From: a virus
IMG/VR virus record: IMGVR_UViG_3300032268_000293
Location: 15,832 to 79,831 of that record
DNA length: 64,000 nucleotides
Reading direction: 5' to 3' (one strand)
The notes under the pieces were generated by a model. That model searched no databases. It saw only the letters and a list, made by a program, of their open reading frames with translations, and was not told the origin of the DNA. Every line of letters starts with the position of its first letter. The stretch's first letter is position 1. Made by a program: the position numbers and the translations under genes. This document shows, one piece after another, positions 14,899-47,590 of the stretch.

Positions 14899-15552
14899 TT
14901 ATTGTACAAATTCCTTAGACAAAGGAAATATCTTTGCGATGACCTCGGCACATGCTTTGGCGATGAGTGTGTGTTCTTTTTGTGTTCCGTTTGCTGAGCG
15001 TAACTGTATATAGTGTATCCAAGATCTCAGTGTTCCATTCATGTAAAGTTTAGACTCAATAAGACCTTCTGGCAAAACAGCACGAGCCTGTTCTTTAGCA
15101 ATACCATTTGCGATCGCCCACTCATATTCCCTCTTTGCTGCATAAATCACTCTTTGTTGAGCACGTTCCCACTCAATTTGAATCATTTTATCCTCAGTTT
15201 CCACACTATTTTGTCTATTTTTTTCATCTTGAAGACGTGCCTCACGAATGACAAAATTAAGATCTTTTGTAGGATCAGCATAGCGTTGAGAGAATTCTTG
15301 GAAAGAGAAACTACGGTGGCGTAACATTTGTCTAGCAATATCACGTGTTGTAGTAATTTCCAAACATACGTTCACCATCTCAAGTGGTGACCAATGTTGA
15401 TTTTTAATTAGATACTTAATTAGTTTTTCACTTGTATCTTTGTTACTTTGATTGCTTGGATTACTAACACGTGCGCAGAATGCCACAAGATCCGTCATGT
15501 TTTCAGCAAAGTATTCGGCAGGTTGCGAATATGAGATTAATTCTACTTTCAT
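14899..15552 (-). CDS. thyX: flavin-dependent thymidylate synthase
   Basis: HWSPLE and RHRSFSFQEFSQRY motifs; likely start MKVELISYSQ. Confidence 0.95.
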   Translation of the reverse strand: MKVELISYSQPAEYFAENMTDLVAFCARVSNPSNQSNKDTSEKLIKYLIKNQHWSPLEMVNVCLEITTTRDIARQMLRHRSFSFQEFSQRYADPTKDLNFVIREARLQDEKNRQNSVETEDKMIQIEWERAQQRVIYAAKREYEWAIANGIAKEQARAVLPEGLIESKLYMNGTLRSWIHYIQLRSANGTQKEHTLIAKACAEVIAKIFPLSKEFVQ

Positions 15553-15614
15553 TTTGTTTCCTTCATCAATAACTCTTTGAGCCCACATTTCCTCATTCTC
15601 AAGAATAGGAATAT

Positions 15615-16628
15615 TCAAATTTTCTTCCATACAGTATATCTCGCTTTCGCTTCTAAACCACTAACAGTGTATTCATCGATAAGTTTCAAAACCTTTTCTT
15701 GCGTGTAACCAGCAAGAATTAATTCATTTATATCTTTATATCCTGTCTCTGGCATTAAGGAAACAGTGTAACCAAGATCAATACACTTCTCAATTTGCTT
15801 ACACAGTTCTTTATTTCTTGGTTCGTTATCAAAAACTACAACGAGATTAGTAGAAAGACCGCGAAGATAGAGACTATCAAAACTTGCTCCTGCAACAGCA
15901 ATGGTGTTTGATAGAAAAAGAGAGTCAATCGGTCCTTCAACCGCATAAACTTTTTCAGCAAAATTGACACGTTCAAGTCCATAAATTCTCTCCATATCAT
16001 CATCAAGTTTGATTGTCATATATCTCGGTTGTTCATCGCCGAAAGCTCTACCCTGAAAAGCAAAAACTTTTCCGTGTTCATTAAAGAAGGGGATTACTAA
16101 TCGAGGATGATCATTATCTTCTGAGGTGTATGTATATTTAACTCTGTTAACATACTTCTTCCACTTTGGCGCATAAAAAAGATTTTCATAATGTGTGCGT
16201 GGAATTTTACGTTTCTCAACATATAACACAGCAGGATGATCTGCTGGCATTGTATCAATCCGTCTAAGACCACTAAGAGTATCATCTTGTAACTCGACAA
16301 AAACTGGCTTTGTGTCAGCAATTTCTATCGTTTTATGCGCATTATATCTCTTTGGACCCGACTTATAACGCTCCATTACATACTGCTCATAAAGGTATGG
16401 GTCAACGTGTTTAATCAGATTGCCTGCGTTTGTTGACACTCCACAATTATGACACTTGTAAAACAAGTCATTTTTTGAGGGATATGCGTATCCTCTTGCC
16501 TTCAGTTTGTTCTTGGTGCTATCGCCACAGAAGGGACAGGAGAAATTGAAGGTGTTGTCTTTCTTCTCCTTGAAATTTCGAAGGCGAGAAGAAAGTTGGG
16601 TGATGTATTTTAGATCAATGTATAGCAT
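15615..16628 (-). CDS. 61: DNA primase gp61
   Basis: CPFCGDS...CHNC zinc finger; Toprim EGPIDS and FDNE. Confidence 0.95.
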   Translation of the reverse strand: MLYIDLKYITQLSSRLRNFKEKKDNTFNFSCPFCGDSTKNKLKARGYAYPSKNDLFYKCHNCGVSTNAGNLIKHVDPYLYEQYVMERYKSGPKRYNAHKTIEIADTKPVFVELQDDTLSGLRRIDTMPADHPAVLYVEKRKIPRTHYENLFYAPKWKKYVNRVKYTYTSEDNDHPRLVIPFFNEHGKVFAFQGRAFGDEQPRYMTIKLDDDMERIYGLERVNFAEKVYAVEGPIDSLFLSNTIAVAGASFDSLYLRGLSTNLVVVFDNEPRNKELCKQIEKCIDLGYTVSLMPETGYKDINELILAGYTQEKVLKLIDEYTVSGLEAKARYTVWKKI

Positions 16629-32094: not shown

Positions 32095-33444
32095 TTATCC
32101 GAAAAATTCGTCTAAACTCTGGGTTTCTTGCGTTTCGAAGTGTTCATCGAACATATTTCGCGAATTTTTAGCCAAGTTTGGATCGAAATTCGTTTTTGTA
32201 AGAAGTTCGTTTAGATACCCAGTTGGCTTTTGTTCAGCCAAATCAACATAATGCTGGGCAATACGCTTACGATCAAACTGCTGGATTAACTCATAGTTGT
32301 TGTTGACGATACGCATATACTCAGTCTCTGGCATATCGCAGTACTCAGCGATCTTTTCGCCATATTCTTTTGGTGTATAGGACTTCTTAAGCATACAGTA
32401 GTTGACCCCTGCTTTCAGAAGAACACCATTACCTTCTTCGTTGTTGGAAACGCCATAGTTCACAGCGATGGGCACAGTCCCGATACGCATAGCATCCACG
32501 ACAACCCGATTGAAATGCTCACCAAAAGTGTTAGACCAACTAGAATCAATAAGAAATCTAGAAGTTGATAAAATCTCGTCACGTTTTCCTCCAGAAATAA
32601 AACCAAGATACTCGAAGTTGCCTGAGTTTTCGGCATTTTCCCAAATACGTTTACCTTCCCTATCAGGTGTTACGTCTGGGTCATATTGCCTAGTAGCAAA
32701 ATAATCTTCTTTACATTTTTCCTTCGACATCATGTATGCTGCTTCAATACCATAACCACCAACAAGGGTTTTGACATTTTTCATGTAAGGTACTGCACGA
32801 ATAAGGTCGTCCACACGCTTCCAGCGTTTAAATGTCTGTATTGACAGGATTTTGTTCTCGCGACCAGCAAACTGCGGAGTAGGTGGTACGCCAGCGATAT
32901 CCTGAGGGTTTAAAATTAACGCTCGAGGTGTGGACATAAAATCAGCTGAGTCATACGCAGCAGGGTGTACGCATGCGAGACCAGCAAAATGTTTTTCAAA
33001 TATACTAATCCAAGGATAGAGTTTCTTTAGATTTGCGTCATGAATAATTACAATTTGTTTTGCTTTGACATTCTCAATCATTGGCAACCAATCTTTATAT
33101 TTCTCGGTGTCCTTGTTTTTAAAACCGAAAATAGATTGCCAAATAATAATATCGTGTTTGTTTGCGTCTTCAACAAATTTGTCGATGGACTCTTTTACTT
33201 TATAAGAATAATATGGTGCCATCCAACCATCACCTTGATGAACAGGATAACCAGAACCAATACCAATCTCCCATCCTTCCTTCAATTCAGAAGGAATCTC
33301 AACAGGACGAACTGTCTTTGTGCCTTTAAGGTAGGCAAAATTTACTTCATGACCAAGTTCTTTTAATCCTGCCATTAGATGTTCGCAGTGATTAATGATT
33401 CCACCAAAGTTGTTGAAGGTGTGCATTACCATTAAAATTCTCAT
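32095..33444 (-). CDS. GT-B fold glycosyltransferase, probably acting on DNA
   Basis: MRILMV...GGI N-terminus, FKRWKRVDDLIRAV, GEHFNRVVVDAM; in an operon with the TET/JBP gene. Confidence 0.85.
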   Translation of the reverse strand: MRILMVMHTFNNFGGIINHCEHLMAGLKELGHEVNFAYLKGTKTVRPVEIPSELKEGWEIGIGSGYPVHQGDGWMAPYYSYKVKESIDKFVEDANKHDIIIWQSIFGFKNKDTEKYKDWLPMIENVKAKQIVIIHDANLKKLYPWISIFEKHFAGLACVHPAAYDSADFMSTPRALILNPQDIAGVPPTPQFAGRENKILSIQTFKRWKRVDDLIRAVPYMKNVKTLVGGYGIEAAYMMSKEKCKEDYFATRQYDPDVTPDREGKRIWENAENSGNFEYLGFISGGKRDEILSTSRFLIDSSWSNTFGEHFNRVVVDAMRIGTVPIAVNYGVSNNEEGNGVLLKAGVNYCMLKKSYTPKEYGEKIAEYCDMPETEYMRIVNNNYELIQQFDRKRIAQHYVDLAEQKPTGYLNELLTKTNFDPNLAKNSRNMFDEHFETQETQSLDEFFG

Positions 33445-34271
33445 GTCCAAAGTCCTTGTCTAATTTTAATCAAACGAATCATCATGTCTTCGTCTTCTTG
33501 TTCATAGCGTTGCTCAATTTCAGTGCACAAGTCAAGTGCTTTTTTAGTTTCTTCTTTTTCTTCTTCGGTACGATCCTCAAAGTCAAGGAATCCTTTATCA
33601 GCCTCGCGACGTTTATCGCAAATAGCAGACCAACCAGATGCTTCGTGGGCATCAACACGTTTTGGTCGCTCAACTGTCCACCAAGTATATAGATCTAGAA
33701 TTTCTTGCGCTTTAATTGCTTGGTGAGTTAATTTACCAAAACCCTCATCATCGGGTTTGAGACCCCAATCTTCACCAGCTGTCAATTTACGTTGCCATTC
33801 TAGATTAGCAAGTCCGCACTCTGGATTGCGCCAAGTGCGCCAACGGAACCATCCTGTGGCATACCAAGGTGATTTAAACTTCTTGCGTGACTCTTCATCC
33901 CAAACAACATGCCACCACGCAAGTTCTACTTCCACAAAATCGACAAGTTCATTGAAGAGGCATGGTAGGAAGCGATTTCCGACATCACACCAGTTTCCTG
34001 GCTTAATGTCACGAGGGTGGGCAGTAAGAGAATGAGTGCGAGTAACCCAGCGATTATTGATGTAGTATTTAACAGAGTAAATCGCATCAGGAATGTATAG
34101 AATTGCTCCCTGAATCGCATCAAGACCTTCTTCGGCAAGCCAGTATCGAAATTTGTGTGCTTCTTTTGCAGCTGCATTCCAGTTTCTCCATCCCTTTGAT
34201 GTTTCTGCGTGTGGCTTTGGTGTCCCACGAAGCCAGTCGGCGAATTTAGTGCATGACCAATAGTTGCGCAT
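33441..34271 (-). CDS. Trp-rich conserved hypothetical protein
   Basis: 276 aa, coupled to the glycosyltransferase. Confidence 0.75.
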   Translation of the reverse strand: MRNYWSCTKFADWLRGTPKPHAETSKGWRNWNAAAKEAHKFRYWLAEEGLDAIQGAILYIPDAIYSVKYYINNRWVTRTHSLTAHPRDIKPGNWCDVGNRFLPCLFNELVDFVEVELAWWHVVWDEESRKKFKSPWYATGWFRWRTWRNPECGLANLEWQRKLTAGEDWGLKPDDEGFGKLTHQAIKAQEILDLYTWWTVERPKRVDAHEASGWSAICDKRREADKGFLDFEDRTEEEKEETKKALDLCTEIEQRYEQEDEDMMIRLIKIRQGLWT

Positions 34272-34274
34272 GTT

Positions 34275-34490
34275 TTACCTCTTTAAATTTATGTATTCTT
34301 TAAAATAATTATCAAATTTGTTAATTAAGCTCTCAATGTCACTGCTGTTTGTAAGATCCTCAACTATGCGCTTCTCATCCATATTAAACTGTTTCGCATA
34401 TCTTCTTGCGATACTTAGAAGAGTCGCAACTCTCATGTTAGGACTCTTCAAATTTAATGAAAGTTTTTGTCTTTCTTCACGAAAACTCAT
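34275..34490 (-). CDS. hypothetical protein
   Basis: 71 aa, coupled to the dioxygenase. Confidence 0.6.
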   Translation of the reverse strand: MSFREERQKLSLNLKSPNMRVATLLSIARRYAKQFNMDEKRIVEDLTNSSDIESLINKFDNYFKEYINLKR

Positions 34491-35800
34491 ACAAAGAATT
34501 CATCAATATCAGCCTTTACCGCATTGGGATGATACTTCGCCAAATCTTCTTCACCAAGTTTGTTGCGAAGGTAATCATACCACTCTTGTTCTTCCCACAT
34601 TCCTGGGGAAACACCATTCCATAGTTTTTTCCATAGAGGGTGTTCTTTGTTCAATCTACGAGACTCAACATATTCATATCTAGTATTTTCGTATTCGTAC
34701 GATCCAAGTTCTAACATGTTTTCACGCAAATAAACAACAAGCGAAACACGCTCAGAACCTTCTTCGCATACGATTGGTGTGTTACCATGAATAACCTCAT
34801 GATTGTTTACCAACAACAAATCTCCTGGACGAACATTTACGGCAATACGAATTTCAGGGAAAATCAAATAACCACCTGTGTATCTACCATCATTAGAAAG
34901 TGTCAACAGATTTGAAAGACCATCAGAAAAGTCGCCAGCATCACGATGAGCAGCAGTTCTAAATGTTTTATTTACTGTTACTGTAGTAAAAGGTGTCTCA
35001 GGAATAACAAATCTTGGATCAATTTTATCTGTTGCTACTTTCTGAGCGGAATATCTTGTTGGTAATAGTGTCTCAAAACCTCTAGCCAAATGCTGAAGGA
35101 AGGGATACGCCATCTTAAACTTCTCAAAATTATCACGAGTATATGTAGTCGCACGACCAAACGGAATACGAGGATAACGATCGAACCAACCTGCGATACC
35201 AGAATCAACTGGATTACCATAGGATGTTTCACTAACCATCTTCATAGTTTCTTGTGTTGATTCTGCTCTCTGCGCAGGTGTCAACGGAATAATACTGTCA
35301 ACCCACTCATCAAAATTAAATTTGTTGCGGAAACGTGAGATAACCCAAACATTATTCTTACCCGAACCCAATGCTTTCAAACGTGACTCTGGTGTTGGAT
35401 AACGTGAACGAATTTCTTCAATAACATCCTCATCTCCGAGTTTGGCTTTTTCTGCGTTGAGTAAAGCAAGCATTAGTTCTTCCTGATAATTTGTTACCCA
35501 CTCACGACCTTCGCCTGTTACCGATGTCCCTTCTTTGATACCAGAAGCAAGTCCACGATTTTCAGTACGAACAGCAGCCTCACGCAATCCAGCATATGCT
35601 GCGTCTTGTTCTTCCTTTGAGAAAAAGTTTTTTCTAAACTTAAAGGCAATATGCCTTTCGTCTGGATCAACTCCATAACCAGATGGAAGATAACAATCCG
35701 TATCCTCTTCAATCAAAATATCATAATTGGACTCATCAACAAACATACCAAGTAAATGTTCGCAGTCATGTTTTTGTTCTAGTTTAATTACACGTGTCAT
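34487..35800 (-). CDS. TET/JBP-family 2OG-Fe(II) 5-methylpyrimidine dioxygenase
   Basis: TPFTTVTVN..FRTAAHRDAGD (HxD), HEVIHGNTP (distal H), RVSLVVYLRE (2OG-binding R). Confidence 0.85.
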   Translation of the reverse strand: MTRVIKLEQKHDCEHLLGMFVDESNYDILIEEDTDCYLPSGYGVDPDERHIAFKFRKNFFSKEEQDAAYAGLREAAVRTENRGLASGIKEGTSVTGEGREWVTNYQEELMLALLNAEKAKLGDEDVIEEIRSRYPTPESRLKALGSGKNNVWVISRFRNKFNFDEWVDSIIPLTPAQRAESTQETMKMVSETSYGNPVDSGIAGWFDRYPRIPFGRATTYTRDNFEKFKMAYPFLQHLARGFETLLPTRYSAQKVATDKIDPRFVIPETPFTTVTVNKTFRTAAHRDAGDFSDGLSNLLTLSNDGRYTGGYLIFPEIRIAVNVRPGDLLLVNNHEVIHGNTPIVCEEGSERVSLVVYLRENMLELGSYEYENTRYEYVESRRLNKEHPLWKKLWNGVSPGMWEEQEWYDYLRNKLGEEDLAKYHPNAVKADIDEFFV

Positions 35801-37191
35801 ACTTTAAACCCTTCGAAATTGTTTTCTTCTATTCTTTTACCAAAAGAACTTTGATCAAATAGAGGAACATCATTATCAACTTTACCCATACCACCCAAAT
35901 TACTTTGAGCACTCATCTCAACATCATATAGACGCATATGTTTACGATCAACTCCAACAATAAATCTCTTATAGAAATTTGGATCAGAATAACGATTCTT
36001 CAACTGTTTCACCATAATCTGATTCAACTCCGCAAGTTCCTCTGTACTAATTAGAGCAATCATTAAGTCTGCTGTTGCTGGCAAACCGAAAGATTCAGAA
36101 GTATCTTCAAGACCAACATCAGTGTTACTATAACCAGAACGTGTAGTTTGTGTAGCAGAAACAATTGGCACTTTATACTCAACAGCCAAACCACGAAGTT
36201 CTTCTGCGATTGCTTTAATATATGTATAAGAGTTTACATTTCCACTCAGTTTCAAACGCTGACTTGCACAAATATTAATATAATCGATAAAGATAATGTC
36301 TGGCGTAAAGTCTTTCTTCAATCTCAACTCTTCAAGCAAAGCACGGAAATGACCAGCATGAGCAGAAGTGGTAGGATATTCTTTTACGACCAATTTACCA
36401 TTCGTCTTTTCTTTCAACTTCTCAACACGAGAATCAAAGACCCTACGCTCAACCATCTTCAATCCTTCCATAGAAAGATCAAGTAGGTTTGCGTCAATAC
36501 GTTCTGCAATCTTTTCCTCAGCCATCTCCATGGTTATGTATAAAACATTAACACCCTTCATCAACATAGACGAAGCAAAATGACACATTGCCAAAGATTT
36601 ACCAACACCAGTACCAGCAAGAATAATGTTCAGCGTTTTCTTACTGACTCCTCCGTTCGTGATTTTATTGAGAAGTTCAATGTCGAAAGGAATCTTCTCT
36701 TCAACCCTGTGATAAAAATCATAACGATCAGCAGCATTTTCAAGATAGTCATGACCAACATGATTATCAAATGAAACGGCAAGAGCATCGCTAAGAATAG
36801 AAACAATCGCATCTTGGTTACGGTTTTTATCTTTTCCATCAATTATTTTGATTGAACTGAGAATAGCATTATAAACTGCTTTATCTTTACAGAATTTTTC
36901 TGTTGATTCAACCAACCACTCCTCATTAGAATGTTCATCCGCAAAATCTTCAACAAGTTCGTTAATGTTTTTTACTTGTTCGTCAGTAACATCAGTTCTA
37001 TTACTTACTTCAATTTTAACAATATCTTTACTTGGAACCTTACCATACTTGTTAAAGAATTTATCAATTTCCTCAAAAACAATACGATCTGTTCTCTCAG
37101 TAAAATACTCAGGAACCAGAAAGGGCATAACCTTTCTGGAATATTCCTCATTAGAAATTAGATTTGAAAAAATCTGATTTTCAATTCTCAT
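35797..37191 (-). CDS. 41: replicative helicase gp41
   Basis: [21 protein letters not shown] and KQLKNRY motifs. Confidence 0.97.
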
Positions 37192-38239
37192 TCAATTCTT
37201 CCTCTAGTTCTTCAATTTCTTGCTCAACGTCACTACCATAATTATACTTTGATTTACAATATTTGTCAAGTTGAGTTAAGATATCCTCAGTGAAGAAATT
37301 AGAGGGATTGCTTGCAATGTTTTTACCGAATACTTTTCTACCATCATGAACCTCGATACGACCACCCTGCGCTTTCCAGATTCCTGCTTCAACAGCAAGA
37401 TCGGTTAGACCATGATGACGATCTAGACCTTTAGTGAAAGACAATTTTGTTTCAACCATAGATTTCTCTCTTGTGAAACGAGACTTCTCAAGTTTACACT
37501 TGATAATATTACCAACAACTTCAGTTCCGTCTTTATCTTGCGACTTAGAAAGGAACACGATTGTTGATGCTGCATATTTCAAGCCATCGCCACCACCCAT
37601 AACTTTAGTTGGAATGTAAGCACCAACTGCTGCGTAAGTATGATTAGTCACAACCATAGCAATATCGAGTTTAGCCAACTTCAAAGATAGCACCCTGAAA
37701 GCACCTCGAATCAACTGCGCACGAGTCATATCTCGTGTATCTTTCCCCTCAAGCGTATCTTCCATTTCTTTAGCAGTTGAAAGCATACCCAATGAATCAA
37801 GGAACAACATCAAAGGTGGGCGATCTTTCTTTGGTGTCTTTTCATAAGCATCTAGAATCTTAGATGCTTGAGTGCGGAATTCTTGAATCGTAGAAACAGG
37901 AACAATAACAAAACGCTTGGTGTCAATACCACGTTCCTGAAGCATGTCCTTCGTCAACGCACCTTCTGTTTCAAAGTAAACGACTCCAGCTTGTTCATTA
38001 GTTCGAAGAAAATTTCCCGCAATGCCAAGAGCATAAAAGGTTTTTCCTGTGGAAGACTCACCAGCCAAAGCTGTAACTTTGTTGCTAGGTAAACCACCAT
38101 AGATGCTACCACTGATAAGAGCATTAAAGGCATAAGAACCAGTATCGATAAAACTGCCAGTATCACCAACCACACCATCATCAGCCAATCCCGCATATTC
38201 ATTATCAAGTTCCTTTACAATATTTTTTAAAAAACTCAT
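37181..38239 (-). CDS. uvsX: RecA-like recombinase UvsX
   Basis: [18 protein letters not shown] and GGGDG motifs. Confidence 0.96.
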
Positions 38240-38487: not shown

Positions 38488-40968
38488 TCATGCGAAGAAT
38501 TCATCTAGATCGTTTTTCTCAACAATACTCCAGTCAATTGCCTCAAGAATTATTGAAAGTGGATCAAGAAACACCTTCTCAAACTGTTTATCATAATCTA
38601 TGTATTTATGTAGATTCAGCTCATTTGGTAAAGTACCAACAAACGAAATAATGTTTTCGTGTATTGTGTTTGGTTCACGCAAGTAAACGAATTTAATTTT
38701 ATCACCATTCTTAATCAATTGATATTTGTTTAAGAGATTCATTTCTTTCATGTAGTGATTATATAACAAAGCACCACGGACATGAATTGGCGTAGCCTTT
38801 TTATAGATTGTTGATGAAGATTTATAATCATTCAAGTCATTTACGCCACGTGGGAAAGCAATCTCTTCCACACTCATCGTATTAAATTTCTTTTGAAAGT
38901 CAAGAACGAACTTCCTTAGTTCTTTCTCATCACCACCCATAATCACTTTAATGGCATCTTTTAAAGTCTCACGAATAGTAGCAGGTGTTGACGACTTAAC
39001 CACCTCAAGACCCATAATCTTCATCTTGGGTTGCGCATACTGAACACCCTCAGAGTTATGGACATTGAGAACGTAGCGTTTCTTAGCAGTCCATATACCT
39101 TTGTCGGCGATAGACTCACGCTTCATAATCATTTTTTGATCATAAGCATTCTGTCTTCGAGCAAGTTCTTGATAACATTTATCGATGAATGGTTGAACCT
39201 TGTCTTCGCATATCTTGTCGATTGTAACTATTACTTTTTGGGTGTCTTTTTGTTGTTCTTCTGTGAAGATAGAATCAACAAGCGGAGCCATATTAATATA
39301 CACAGAGTCAGTATCAACAGCAATAACATAGTCTGCTCCTTCAGTCTTTAACAATTTGTTGAAATATTCATTGAGTCTATCGTGGATCCAACGAATAGAA
39401 AGTTGACCAGAAAGTGTAATACCTTCTGATAATCGTTTATCGTAGTATCGGAAATATTGATTAGCCAAAGCACCATAAGCAGAGTTAAGAGCAATCTTTA
39501 ATGCCATCTGTAGGTTGTTGAGTCTAGATATCTCATTAGTCAATGCATGATTCTTTGTGTTCTCATATTCCTGCTGCACTTTCAGCATCTGCTTCTTTGA
39601 CTTGCTTCGATCAGTATACATTTTCTCCATCAACTCAGGGAGGAAACCACGTACGTCTTTACGATAACACCATCCATTCGCAGAAACAGCAAGTCCATTA
39701 TTATCTGGCTCTTCTTTCAGAAACAAATCTACTCCACCAGAAACGCTTTTAACAATAGTCTCGGGAGACATATTATACTGCATAATCAAATGCGGATACA
39801 GACTATTCAAGTCAAACGAAACTACCCACTTATGAAATCCAATCAGAGGATCTTTAACATACGCACCTTCAATTGCTGTGTCTTTAGAGTTACCAGTCTT
39901 TGGTGGTATAACAATCTTTTTTGCACGCAAATGATTGTAGATTATAGTATCCCACATGCGAACCTGCGAAAACACATCTTCGTAGTTCACCTTTGCGTTA
40001 TAAGCCATAACAATCGCCAACTCGACAAGTTTCATCTTGTCTTCAAGCATGTCAACAAGAGAGGTGTCATGAATATTATAGTCAACGAAATCACGCCAGT
40101 GGTTTGTATAGAAATCTTTGAAAGAATCTCCTGGGTTTTCTTTCTTACGCTCACCAAGTTCCACAAAAGCAATATGGTCAAGACGATACGATTCCTGCAT
40201 CGTATAAGTAAACTTCTTATAGAGATCGATGTAGTCAAGAACACTTACGCCAATAATATCATACGCAATTTCTTTATTGCCTTTGATGTAGATTTCTCTG
40301 CGTGTGATCATATTCCAAGGCGACATCTTCTTAGAGTCATCTTCGCCGAGAACGTTGTGAATACGTTGAATCAGATATGGGATATCGAACAGATTGATGT
40401 TCCAACCTGTAACAATATCTGGTGTGTTCTTACGCCAAAATGTTAAGAACTCGCGAAGCAGTTTTGCTTCCGAGTCACAGTGAATGTAGAAAGGACATTG
40501 ACCATCGTAAGGTTTGCGACCAAACACAGTTAGACGTTTGGTCTTGTTGTCCATCAACGAGATTAGAAGTATTTCCTCATTCGCCGTTTCGATGTTAGGA
40601 AAACCATCCTCAGTCTCAGTTTCAATATCAATAGAGAAACACCTAATCTTGTCCTTGTCGTAAACAATTTCTGACGGATAATTATCCGAGATGTATTGGT
40701 AAGCATAATTTAAATTTCCATAAATTTTAAAACCCTCAACACCCTCGTACTTCTCGATAAAGTCTCGTGTGTCTTTAATATTACCTGGAGAGAATGAATA
40801 CACAACTTCGCCATCAAGTGTGCGCATCATCTCTTTTGAATTTTTATGTTTTGATGTTACGTAGAGAGTTGGGTGGAAATCTATCTTCTCTTTAAATGTC
40901 TCACCATTCTCATAACCTCGAACGAGAATTTTATTCCCGATAGAACAAATGTTCGTATAAAACTGCAT
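38488..40968 (-). CDS. 43: family B DNA polymerase gp43
   Basis: DIET exonuclease motif, FDLNSLYP, KIALNSAYG, DTDS, KKRY. Confidence 0.98.
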   Translation of the reverse strand: MQFYTNICSIGNKILVRGYENGETFKEKIDFHPTLYVTSKHKNSKEMMRTLDGEVVYSFSPGNIKDTRDFIEKYEGVEGFKIYGNLNYAYQYISDNYPSEIVYDKDKIRCFSIDIETETEDGFPNIETANEEILLISLMDNKTKRLTVFGRKPYDGQCPFYIHCDSEAKLLREFLTFWRKNTPDIVTGWNINLFDIPYLIQRIHNVLGEDDSKKMSPWNMITRREIYIKGNKEIAYDIIGVSVLDYIDLYKKFTYTMQESYRLDHIAFVELGERKKENPGDSFKDFYTNHWRDFVDYNIHDTSLVDMLEDKMKLVELAIVMAYNAKVNYEDVFSQVRMWDTIIYNHLRAKKIVIPPKTGNSKDTAIEGAYVKDPLIGFHKWVVSFDLNSLYPHLIMQYNMSPETIVKSVSGGVDLFLKEEPDNNGLAVSANGWCYRKDVRGFLPELMEKMYTDRSKSKKQMLKVQQEYENTKNHALTNEISRLNNLQMALKIALNSAYGALANQYFRYYDKRLSEGITLSGQLSIRWIHDRLNEYFNKLLKTEGADYVIAVDTDSVYINMAPLVDSIFTEEQQKDTQKVIVTIDKICEDKVQPFIDKCYQELARRQNAYDQKMIMKRESIADKGIWTAKKRYVLNVHNSEGVQYAQPKMKIMGLEVVKSSTPATIRETLKDAIKVIMGGDEKELRKFVLDFQKKFNTMSVEEIAFPRGVNDLNDYKSSSTIYKKATPIHVRGALLYNHYMKEMNLLNKYQLIKNGDKIKFVYLREPNTIHENIISFVGTLPNELNLHKYIDYDKQFEKVFLDPLSIILEAIDWSIVEKNDLDEFFA

Positions 40969-46924: not shown

Positions 46925-47590
46925 TTATTCAGCAGTTGAGCCAGTCTCAACAGCAACGTAATATGCTAGTTCTGCGCTTGTGTTCTTAAAACGACAAATC
47001 TTCATTTTAGCAATAGTAACGTCATATGCTCCAGGAAGCATCTTAAGGTTTTCAACTTTCAGATATGCTGTAAAATTTCTATCAGTTGTACCAAGATCAA
47101 TTTCGAATTTATTACTTAGCGGATTCTTGTTGTCGAATACACGTGCAGTAACATTAGCACCATCACCAGAAATAGAAACATCGTTTACTTTCAAAATACC
47201 AGCAGAACGGATGACATGGTCTAGATCGCCTGATGTAAGTTTAAAAGAAATGTTTGTGTCATCCTCTGGGAATGCGATAGATTTGGTAGGTGCTTTCAAT
47301 GTATTAGTGTCTGCTGCTTTGTACTTGATAACATTCTTACCTTGTTTAACTTCGACGATGTCGTTATTAAATGTAAACTCTGGGTCTTCGAAGAGTGAAA
47401 CAACACCGAGGAATTCGTTTACATCATAGATACCAAAATCTTGTGGAAAAGATTCCTTTACAGTTGCTTCAGCAAAAACATTATTACCTTCGTTCTTTGT
47501 CGAAAGTTTATTACCCTGCTTAATTAGCAGATTCATGTTGATGGAGGCGAAGTTCTTCACGAGAGTTTGTGTTTCTTTAGTCAGTTTCAT
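46925..47590 (-). CDS. 45: sliding clamp gp45
   Basis: KNFASIN, FGIYDVNEFL, NLKMLPGAY, YYVAVE. Confidence 0.94.
   Translation of the reverse strand: MKLTKETQTLVKNFASINMNLLIKQGNKLSTKNEGNNVFAEATVKESFPQDFGIYDVNEFLGVVSLFEDPEFTFNNDIVEVKQGKNVIKYKAADTNTLKAPTKSIAFPEDDTNISFKLTSGDLDHVIRSAGILKVNDVSISGDGANVTARVFDNKNPLSNKFEIDLGTTDRNFTAYLKVENLKMLPGAYDVTIAKMKICRFKNTSAELAYYVAVETGSTAE

Follow-up and report, generated by a model that had tools for sequence, protein, structure and literature searches.

Does a TET/JBP-family dioxygenase gene found beside a replicative helicase gene act together with a nearby glycosyltransferase (GT) gene on viral DNA and, if so, on which base, and do the two ORFs lying between them take part? 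We examined this locus in a window of 64,000 nucleotides from IMG/VR record IMGVR_UViG_3300032268_000293. The source is an uncultivated T4-like phage and the locus lies within its replication genes. Five ORFs form a chain on the minus strand, flanked by two perfect promoter sequences:

37241..37269, minus strand: sigma-70-type promoter TTGACA-17-TATAAT (12/12), upstream of the helicase
35797..37191, minus strand: gp41/DnaB-type replicative helicase, 464 aa, its stop overlapping the TET start (ATGA)
34487..35800, minus strand: TET/JBP-family Fe(II)/2OG 5-methylpyrimidine dioxygenase, 437 aa, assigned by PF12851 and its catalytic residues
34275..34490, minus strand: 71-aa ORF, from the ORF call
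33441..34271, minus strand: 276-aa Trp-rich ORF (20 Trp, 7.2 %)
32095-33450 as an ORF, 32095..33444 from its ATG, minus strand: GT of GT4/GT-B type, assigned by PF00534
32061..32089, minus strand: sigma-70-type promoter TTGACA-17-TATAAT (12/12), directly past the GT stop

The preliminary description had these ORFs linked by overlapping or near-abutting stops and starts, and all five were found in that arrangement, with ATGA overlaps at the helicase/TET, TET/71-aa and 276-aa/GT junctions and a gap of 3 nt between the 71-aa stop and the 276-aa ATG. The promoter at 37241..37269 is the likely start of a helicase-TET-p71-p276-GT transcription unit, while the predicted promoter past the GT stop drives the next gene (239 aa) and marks the end of the unit. 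No further perfect TTGACA-17-TATAAT promoter was found in the helicase-to-GT interval. With perfect promoters before the helicase and after the GT and none inside, the earlier label of a helicase operon is reasonable. The DNA of the module gave no match among GenBank phages, and the gene-context comparisons drew on IMG/VR loci only.

The dioxygenase matched Pfam PF12851 (Tet_JBP) over residues 231-360 with 80.2 bits (cut-off 34.9, E=1.3e-22). Both the HxD...H iron triad and the distal arginine for 2-oxoglutarate are present, and these residues (H285-x-D287, H338 and R351) were invariant across 30 homologues of 57-96 % identity. Among cultured phages, dioxygenases of 41-47 % identity are found in Stenotrophomonas phage DLP6, Caulobacter phage Cr30 and phage C48C1. 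The AF2 model (pLDDT 80.5) has the TET-type double-stranded beta-helix as its predicted fold. When this model was compared with the PDB using Foldseek, the best matches were all TET enzymes (E 7e-11 to 8e-9); individual matches included CcTet (7e-11), TET2 (6.6e-10) and NgTET1 (5e-9), and also CMD1. Enzymology exists for two representative phage enzymes of the TET/JBP superfamily (PMC8989533; PMC13229309). From its family, catalytic residues and context, the dioxygenase is predicted to convert thymine to 5-hydroxymethyluracil (5hmU).

The GT probably starts at the ATG at 33444, which gives a protein of 449 aa and matches other gene calls. Its C-terminal Rossmann domain matched PF00534 (Glycos_transf_1; 39.5 bits, cut-off 26.4, E=5.6e-10) and its N-terminal domain gave a weak match to PF13439; by profile, it is a GT-B/GT4-type enzyme. 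The Pfam scan (E<=0.1) returned neither of the T4 glucosyltransferase families, PF11440 and PF09198, and the sequence had no detectable similarity to solved structures in the PDB. The GT family is small, phage-restricted and phage-sized. Of the GT-homologue loci whose upstream flank is intact, 55/55 have a TET homologue directly upstream; these span different phage backbones, and one of the TET homologues is only 39 % identical. This coupling supports the TET/JBP and GT pair as a real, conserved DNA-modification module, as had been proposed from the window. On the strength of the same strict coupling, the GT is predicted to be a 5hmU-DNA glycosyltransferase.

Both proteins also share their extreme C-terminus with the phage DNA polymerase. 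The features concerned are:

38488..40968, minus strand: gp43-type DNA polymerase; its C-terminal sequence, DLDEFFA, serves as reference for the tail motif
34490..34510, minus strand: dioxygenase C-terminal tail DIDEFFV, which matches the putative clamp-binding tail of the polymerase
32098..32118, minus strand: GT C-terminal tail SLDEFFG, carrying the motif of the other two tails
46925..47590, minus strand: gp45-type sliding clamp (PF09116), to which the three tails are proposed to dock

The motif is of the T4 type (L-D/E-x-F-F), and the strict pattern picked out polB, TET and GT only (3/129 contig ORFs). It persists in 26 different tail variants of polB, 62 of TET and 33 of GT, and was also found on one unrelated baseplate protein in a relative (G002). 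The dioxygenase tail has low pLDDT in the model and is thus probably flexible. In T4, gp43, gp55 and gp33 have interchangeable clamp-binding C-termini (PMC2988020), and the alpha-GT binds gp45, a contact that was not considered the chief factor setting the modification level (PMC13216743). As the polymerase's acidic-hydrophobic tail recurs at the end of the dioxygenase and of the GT, both enzymes are probably recruited by the gp45 clamp, and the shared tails suggest clamp-tethered modification. The clamp-binding reading rests on a short motif. Co-variation of TET and GT tails within genomes (3.81 versus 3.35 shuffled of 7 positions; 22/5000 shuffles) was set aside as evidence, being weak and confounded by relatedness, and that between polB and TET tails was not significant.

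It could be argued that the GT glycosylates a small molecule, a protein or part of the host envelope and that nothing more than a common early operon links it to the dioxygenase; the dioxygenase alone would then leave the DNA with 5hmU or a base oxidised further. This would agree with the generic GT4 profile being the only family match, with the JGI automatic annotation of the GT as 'cell wall biosynthesis' and with its lack of similarity to known DNA glucosyltransferases. However, published phage DNA GTs resemble LPS and teichoic-acid enzymes too (10.1101/2023.12.21.572611), and both the unbroken coupling to TET across phage backbones, even where the TET is only 39 % identical, and the tail shared with the DNA polymerase and the dioxygenase argue for an enzyme acting on DNA. 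We consider a non-DNA substrate of the GT unlikely.

If the two enzymes do form a DNA-modification module, its substrate could be thymine or 5-methylcytosine (5mC). The preliminary description had seen no methyltransferase or hydroxymethylase in the window, and this proved true of the whole contig, which has no PF00145 (C5-methyltransferase) and no PF00303 (ThyA-type hydroxymethylase) gene. The contig is ~49 % complete, so that absence there alone proves nothing; five relatives of 90-100 % completeness that carry an orthologous dioxygenase were therefore searched. PF00145 was found in 0/5 of them and PF00303 likewise in 0/5, and no PF01555 methylase was found in the four of these five that were examined or on the contig itself. 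This speaks against the earlier suggestion that the methylase lies elsewhere in the genome. The accompanying view that a C5-methyltransferase is the usual partner of phage TET loci is out of date, as only about 6 % of them have one (PMC13229309). A glycosyl-5-hydroxycytosine route, which involves a ThyA homologue (PMC13326640), was ruled out by the absence of a PF00303 gene from the contig and the five relatives.

One further gene on the contig bears on the supply of substrate:

14899..15630, minus strand: ThyX thymidylate synthase

Since ThyX is present, the phage makes dTMP and thymine should be in its DNA as substrate. Both thyX and cd had been called intact, which holds for thyX; cd is present on the contig, yet is cut by the left edge of the window. 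The presence of the two genes indicates that thymine is made.

Further evidence came from sister loci. Behind orthologous dioxygenases (53-74 % identity), often likewise located after the helicase, the GT is replaced by GATase, GNAT, sometimes a ParB-like gene, and an amino-acid:DNA transferase (AADT; PF18724, E=4.6e-20), and a related tail motif was found on these alternative AADTs. The AADT cassette is a known, 5hmU-dependent thymidine-hypermodification set (Lee 2021, PMC8989533), and such contexts have been assigned to T -> 5hmU (Lee 2021, PMC8989533; O'Toole 2026, PMC13229309). In a quick IQ-TREE tree of the dioxygenases, GT-linked and AADT-linked members interleave, and the well-supported branches require at least 7 changes between the two contexts. 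Taken with the lack of C5-methyltransferase, hydroxymethylase and PF01555 genes in the relatives and with the coupling of GT to dioxygenase, this exchange supports thymine, which is the favoured one of the two alternatives first offered.

For 5mC to be the substrate, a methyltransferase would have to be encoded in the missing half of the genome or by the host, and the GT would then glycosylate 5hmC. The incompleteness of the contig leaves room for this, clade A/B phage TETs and GTs do make glycosyl-5hmC (PMC8256090; bioRxiv 10.1101/2023.12.21.572611), and phage T-dioxygenases can also oxidise 5mC in vitro (PMC13229309). However, PF00145 is missing even from the near-complete and complete relatives, orthologues of the dioxygenase exchange the GT for cassettes that act on 5hmU, and host Dcm-type methylation would cover rare sites only, which together make 5mC quite improbable.

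With thymine as the more likely substrate, there remain the 276-aa and 71-aa ORFs, which had been put forward as possible new pathway components, with co-occurrence of the 276-aa family and TET genes as the check. The 276-aa protein is a member of a very large and strongly conserved phage family (>5,400 clusters), which for the most part occurs without TET or GT; in 68 sampled loci there was neither within 8 kb, and the gene stood beside unrelated ones. Only one subclade has it inserted between TET and GT; most relatives have these two genes directly adjoining, and in close relatives the 276-aa gene has its own perfect promoter. No homologue was found in the complete genomes G003-G005, all of which have TET (G003 with TET-GT). 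The AF2 model of the protein is all-alpha (pLDDT 78) and had no Foldseek match in the PDB at E<=0.001; a wide VIA-align search gave only BAR-like long-helix matches (Z ~7, sub-meaningful for helical proteins). The protein fell into no Pfam, PHROG or NCBIfam family and matched only unnamed viral clusters in the ESM Atlas, and its family showed no longer fused forms and no conserved neighbour.

The 71-aa ORF is lineage-specific. It stands where 96 %-identical relatives have a promoter-bearing spacer; it is missing from all relatives of the locus, including these, and a pattern scan of IMG/VR found no protein related to it. It too belongs to no Pfam, PHROG or NCBIfam family, and an exhaustive HMMER search returned 13 small proteins (no functional clue), making up a sparse family of 65-102 aa. 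The proposal that the intervening ORFs are pathway components was not borne out: both are unrelated passengers that landed in the TET/GT junction and are not required for the pathway.

Some phage enzymes of this kind are accompanied by ParB. Among the loci compared here, a ParB-like gene is confined to some AADT-type relatives, and neither ParB_N nor a homologue of the ParB-like L132 was found in the contig or in relatives G001-G004. A ParB-activated dioxygenase was ruled out for this phage, as no ParB-like gene was found on the contig or in the GT-type relatives. Some clade C1 enzymes lacking ParB are reported to have acted on neither T nor 5mC in E. coli (O'Toole 2026, PMC13229309); together with the lack of ParB here, this counts against the module reading. 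That the 276-aa protein, the 71-aa protein or both are a lineage-specific accessory factor of the dioxygenase, such as an activator replacing ParB, would suit their place in the TET/GT junction, where stops overlap starts, the lack of a ParB-like gene in this clade and the inactivity of some ParB-less clade C1 enzymes on their own (PMC13229309), but it is very improbable in view of the many loci in which the 276-aa family occurs without TET or GT, the direct TET-GT junctions, the TET genomes lacking a homologue, the separate promoter and the absence of any 71-aa counterpart from relatives.

The reading we prefer, and think probable, is a two-enzyme post-replicative thymidine-hypermodification module (T -> 5hmU -> glycosyl-5hmU) that is recruited by the clamp and to which the 276-aa and 71-aa ORFs are unrelated. 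The dioxygenase, with Fe(II), 2-oxoglutarate and O2, would convert thymine in the phage DNA to 5hmU by hydroxylating its 5-methyl group. The GT4/GT-B enzyme would then move a sugar from a nucleotide-sugar donor onto the 5hmU hydroxyl, and the resulting glycosyl-5hmU, a base-J-like nucleobase, would presumably shield the DNA from host nucleases. A third element, read from sequence only, is that the tails would recruit both enzymes to the gp45 clamp left on newly made DNA. More tentatively, and with somewhat less than even confidence, we propose that in a large T4-like clade the hypermodification writers (dioxygenase, GT and apparently AADTs) carry the polymerase clamp tail, which would couple modification to the replication clamp; that this clamp takes on the DNA tethering which ParB-type CTP clamps provide for other phage T-dioxygenases; and that the product is the first viral base-J-like glycosyl-5hmU.

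The module is a further example of a recently described type of phage DNA modification (Lee 2021; O'Toole 2026). It places a predicted thymine-oxidising branch of phage TETs among the replication genes of T4-like phages that are abundant in the environment, where this branch is paired one-to-one with a GT family of its own. With the two intervening ORFs taken out of the pathway, it is compact, consisting of two genes, and predicts sugar-capped 5hmU in viral DNA, like trypanosome base J. Such viral glycosyl-5hmU is proposed, and not chemically demonstrated, in the papers cited here on phage thymine dioxygenases. These genes are a possible source of new enzymes for T or 5hmU labelling, and the polymerase-like tail offers a concrete idea of the way in which enzymes that modify DNA after replication reach newly made strands.

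The TET/JBP fold and catalytic residues are shared with the phage thymine dioxygenases (5mYOX clades C1/C2, PMC13229309; TET89, Burke 2021, PMC8256090). Further likenesses to 5mYOX C1/C2 are the absence of a C5-methyltransferase, the GT or AADT/GATase neighbours, a C-terminal extension past the catalytic core and, in some relatives of this dioxygenase, a ParB-like gene 3 kb downstream. Unlike 5mYOX C1/C2, this dioxygenase is encoded among the replication genes of a T4-like myovirus, and unlike the ParB-dependent 5mYOX enzymes it comes from a phage without ParB. It has 437 aa, whereas the characterised ParB-independent 5mYOX enzymes have ~290-300 aa, and it carries a polymerase-like tail, of which PMC13229309 makes no mention in 5mYOX. 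The TET_JBP + AADT contigs (Lee 2021, PMC8989533) have the exact GATase, GNAT and AADT PF18724 set of our sister loci and likewise lack a dUMP hydroxymethylase, so the inference of 5hmU formation in situ carries over; here, however, a single GT does the tailoring and the predicted product is a sugar ether, not an amino-acid or polyamine adduct.

The logic is also that of the base J pathway of kinetoplastids (JBP1/2 + JGT), in which a TET/JBP enzyme makes 5hmU in DNA and a GT caps it. The homology of the dioxygenases is only distant, there is no J-binding domain here, the GT4/GT-B enzyme is unrelated in sequence to JGT, and the role would be viral anti-restriction and not transcription control. 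In MT-TET-GT clusters (clades A/B; Burke 2021; Pyle 2023/2024), post-replicative oxidation is likewise followed by glycosylation by envelope-derived GTs, but these need an adjacent C5-methyltransferase, which neither this contig nor the complete relatives have. As in the T4 clamp epitopes (gp43, gp55, gp33), an extreme C-terminal acidic-hydrophobic peptide is found on the polymerase and on putative clamp clients. The T4 alpha-GT-gp45 pair already places a DNA glucosyltransferase on the sliding clamp; here the motif is carried by a dioxygenase and a GT4 enzyme, both of which are predicted to bind.

The contig (79.8 kb, IMG/VR; ~49% complete by CheckV), of which the window forms the right-hand 64 kb, encodes a DNA polymerase 57% identical to cyanomyophage polymerases, so its source is an uncultivated T4-like myovirus. 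We found all five chained ORFs that the preliminary description had placed in the helicase operon, along with two flanking promoters:

37269-37241, minus strand, perfect TTGACA-17-TATAAT promoter flanking the five-gene unit
35797-37191, minus strand, DnaB/gp41-type helicase ORF
34487-35800, minus strand, TET/JBP protein (dioxygenase) ORF, 437 aa
34275-34490, minus strand, 71-aa ORF
33441-34271, minus strand, ORF of a 276-aa protein with 20 tryptophans
32095-33450, minus strand, glycosyltransferase (GT) ORF
32089-32061, minus strand, perfect TTGACA-17-TATAAT promoter flanking the five-gene unit

ATGA overlaps were present at three junctions (helicase/TET, TET/71-aa and 276-aa/GT), and the 276-aa ATG lies 3 nt past the stop of the 71-aa ORF. 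No further perfect TTGACA-17-TATAAT promoter was found inside the unit (between 37241 and 32089). The ORFs, overlaps and bracketing promoters confirm the initial observation. Other gene calls and homologue alignments support an ATG at 33444 as the GT start, for a protein of 449 aa. The helicase operon of this T4-like phage probably contains a two-gene thymidine-hypermodification module (T to 5-hydroxymethyluracil, 5hmU, to glycosyl-5hmU), with two unrelated genes inserted between the dioxygenase and the GT. In three T4-like relatives with neither TET nor GT (sampled IMG/VR loci L008, L027 and L031) a 239-aa-like gene directly follows the helicase, so TET with its tailoring genes seems to be an accessory cassette that was inserted downstream of the helicase. 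In these loci the 276-aa gene lies ~5 kb beyond.

The dioxygenase matched Pfam Tet_JBP well over threshold (E=1.3e-22) and PHROG 24024 along its full length, and H285-x-D287, H338 and R351 were invariant across 30 homologues. The best solved folds for its AlphaFold model (pLDDT 80.5) were TET enzymes only, namely CcTet, human TET2, NgTET1 and CMD1 (7e-11 to 3e-7). Homologues in four cultured phages, DLP6 (KU682439), Cr30 (KF301602), S-CBWM1 (MG450654) and HTVC112P (MN698246), are labelled 'SNF2 DNA repair protein' in GenBank; this looks like an inherited mis-annotation, and the domain and fold results give it no support. DLP6 is a Stenotrophomonas phage and Cr30 a Caulobacter phage, the latter with an ORF resembling an amino-acid:DNA transferase (AADT) ~2 kb downstream of the homologue. 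All four could be used for DNA chemistry. Family-profile searches with the GT gave Glycos_transf_1 (GT4, GT-B) and nothing more specific, and no sequence relative was detectable among solved structures.

Loci with dioxygenase homologues (80) and GT homologues (57) were then sampled from IMG/VR, and the window proteins were placed in them by tblastn. A dioxygenase homologue lay just upstream of the GT in all 55 loci where the upstream flank was present; the other two end at a contig edge. The coupling holds in phage backbones without the helicase and in a pair whose dioxygenase is 39% identical and GT 77%. Among 85 distinct dioxygenases, 50 were followed by this GT, 24 by a different cassette and seven by other genes; four were truncated. 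The alternative cassette comprises a glutamine amidotransferase (GATase), a 298-aa protein, a GNAT and an AADT (PF18724, E=4.6e-20), joined in some loci by a 443-aa protein whose ParB_N signature is weak. The cassette is thymidine-hypermodification machinery working on 5hmU in DNA, and in several sister phages it fills the position that the GT holds here, flanked by the helicase and the 239-aa gene. On a quick IQ-TREE phylogeny GT-linked and AADT-linked dioxygenases are intermixed, and well-supported branches require at least seven switches; GT-type L092/L093, for example, are sister to AADT-type L105/L106/L108 (clade support 99%).

In AADT-type loci (L132 9295-15177, with similar stretches in L105-L114, L121, L128 and L137-L155) the order after TET is GATase, 298-aa, GNAT, (ParB-like 443-aa), AADT, 193-aa and 279-aa, the 193-aa protein having a weak guanylate-kinase-like match. 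Some helicase-linked TET homologues lack both the GT and the standard AADT cassette downstream. One (L097 9321-10328) is followed by a family-less 335-aa ORF, another (L115 2875-4856) by a family-less 343-aa ORF and a weak AADT-like 317-aa protein; these downstream ORFs may represent further tailoring chemistries.

On the simplest reading the dioxygenase is one priming enzyme, making 5hmU, with interchangeable tailoring enzymes, and the pathway would run from thymine in DNA through 5hmU to glycosyl-5hmU. Thymine would then be the substrate here and glycosyl-5hmU the predicted product. The preliminary description had offered thymine as one alternative and a methylase elsewhere as the other. Because the contig is incomplete, we examined five IMG/VR genomes with an orthologous dioxygenase (59-84% identity; 90-100% complete, two of the five with terminal repeats). 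None of the five encoded a PF00145 C5-methyltransferase or a ThyA-family enzyme able to make hydroxymethyl- or hydroxy-pyrimidine nucleotides, and PF01555 methylases were absent from the four of them tested. ThyX and dCMP deaminase are encoded, so the phage makes thymidylate. Together these results make a methylase elsewhere unlikely; with the alternation of orthologues between the GT and a 5hmU-acting AADT cassette, they favour thymine. Both thyX and the deaminase gene had been called intact; thyX is present, but the latter overruns the window's left edge:

1-311 (contig 15792-16142), minus strand, dCMP deaminase, partial in the window and complete on the contig

Nor do phage TET loci usually pair with a C5-methyltransferase, as had been stated: one occurs at only ~6% of phage 5-methylpyrimidine dioxygenase (5mYOX) loci (PMC13229309).

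The two intervening ORFs had been proposed as new pathway components. The 276-aa family is large (5,489 clusters at E<=1e-3), with identity still 65% at rank 120 and contigs up to 367 kb. When its co-occurrence with TET genes was checked, it lay between TET and GT in only 12 of 80 sampled loci, all from close relatives; neither gene was found within 8 kb in the other 68. Neighbours there varied (MazG-like, metallophosphatase, Bax1-I, radical SAM, DNA ligase), no single one occurring in more than 15. Most dioxygenase-GT pairs abut directly, and the insert-bearing arrangement forms one subclade on the dioxygenase tree. No 276-aa homologue was found anywhere in complete genomes G003, G004 and G005, all of which have the dioxygenase and the first also the GT. 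In 96%-identical relatives a 55-bp spacer before the 276-aa gene contains its own perfect promoter, making the gene a separate transcription unit there:

L084 8330-8390 and L085 1167-1227, spacer with a perfect TTGACA-17-TATAAT promoter

The modelled 276-aa protein consists of alpha-helices only (pLDDT 78), and no known fold matched it significantly; it had no family assignment, no fused forms were found, and in sampled loci L004-L083 it had no fixed neighbour. Across these loci and the window (33441-34271, minus strand) its identity stays at 58-68% even where the phages' helicase or DUF6267 proteins have only 30-60%; the gene's G+C (0.44) exceeds that of its flanks. It is an abundant, strongly constrained phage protein and not a component of the TET-GT pathway.

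The 71-aa ORF (G+C low, 0.31) stands where relatives have the promoter spacer and had no counterpart in ~200 related loci. An exhaustive search returned 13 small proteins (65-102 aa, one at 70% identity), a sparse family with the conserved motif DL-GP-GNAF...SSDYENL...FD-YFG. It is probably a genuine small gene that occurs sporadically. Elsewhere among the relatives the TET|GT junction holds other inserts, 300-750 bp long, and is therefore an insertion hot spot. Given their distribution, both ORFs leave the module.

We also found similar C-terminal ends on the polymerase (DLDEFFA), dioxygenase (DIDEFFV) and GT (SLDEFFG). A strict pattern, [LI][DE][DEAS][FLM]F[GASV]?$, matched only these three among 129 gene-like contig ORFs, and again among all 359 ORFs of at least 50 aa. 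In the complete relative G002 (231 ORFs) it matched the same three plus one baseplate protein. The relatives' motif, (S/T/D)-L-(D/E)-x-(F/L/M)-F-(G/A), persists across 26 distinct tail sequences for the polymerase, most of 62 for the dioxygenase and 33 for the GT; it is absent from the helicase, UvsX, 276-aa and 239-aa proteins, GATase and GNAT. The AADT C-terminus, G-L-E-A-(L/F)-(W/L), is related and reminiscent of a clamp-type tail. In the dioxygenase model pLDDT is below 50 over the final seven residues, in keeping with a flexible peptide. The window also encodes a clamp:

46925-47590, gp45-type clamp gene

T4 offers precedents: its polymerase, gp55 and gp33 have interchangeable acidic-hydrophobic C-terminal clamp-binding epitopes in common (PMC2988020), and its alpha-glucosyltransferase interacts with gp45 (Sommer 2004; confirmed in PMC13216743). 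By analogy, the dioxygenase and GT may well dock on the sliding clamp, a reading about as likely as not. Co-variation of TET and GT tails within genomes was weak and confounded by relatedness, adding no support. Gp41-type helicases (35797-37191, minus strand, and homologues) have a different conserved tail, F-(E/D/S)-G-F-K-(F/V), in 39 distinct variants, which may serve to dock a further partner in the replisome.

No chemically shown viral base-J analogue was found in the literature surveyed, and the worthwhile points are the product chemistry, the clade of this 437-aa ParB-less dioxygenase and the candidate clamp docking; an essential C-terminal extension is described in the 2026 T-dioxygenase paper, which makes no mention of a replicative-clamp motif (PMC13229309). 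Phage thymidine hypermodification via a TET-type dioxygenase is itself already in the literature. Enzymology showed that phage 5mYOX enzymes from clades C1 and C2 act on thymine as dioxygenases (O'Toole et al., PMC13229309), and GTs are the commonest neighbours of phage 5mYOX loci (31%; PMC13229309). Lee et al. (PMC8989533) inferred in-situ conversion of T to 5hmU on TET_JBP-plus-AADT contigs without a dUMP hydroxymethylase, and sister loci of the window dioxygenase carry the same kind of arrangement.
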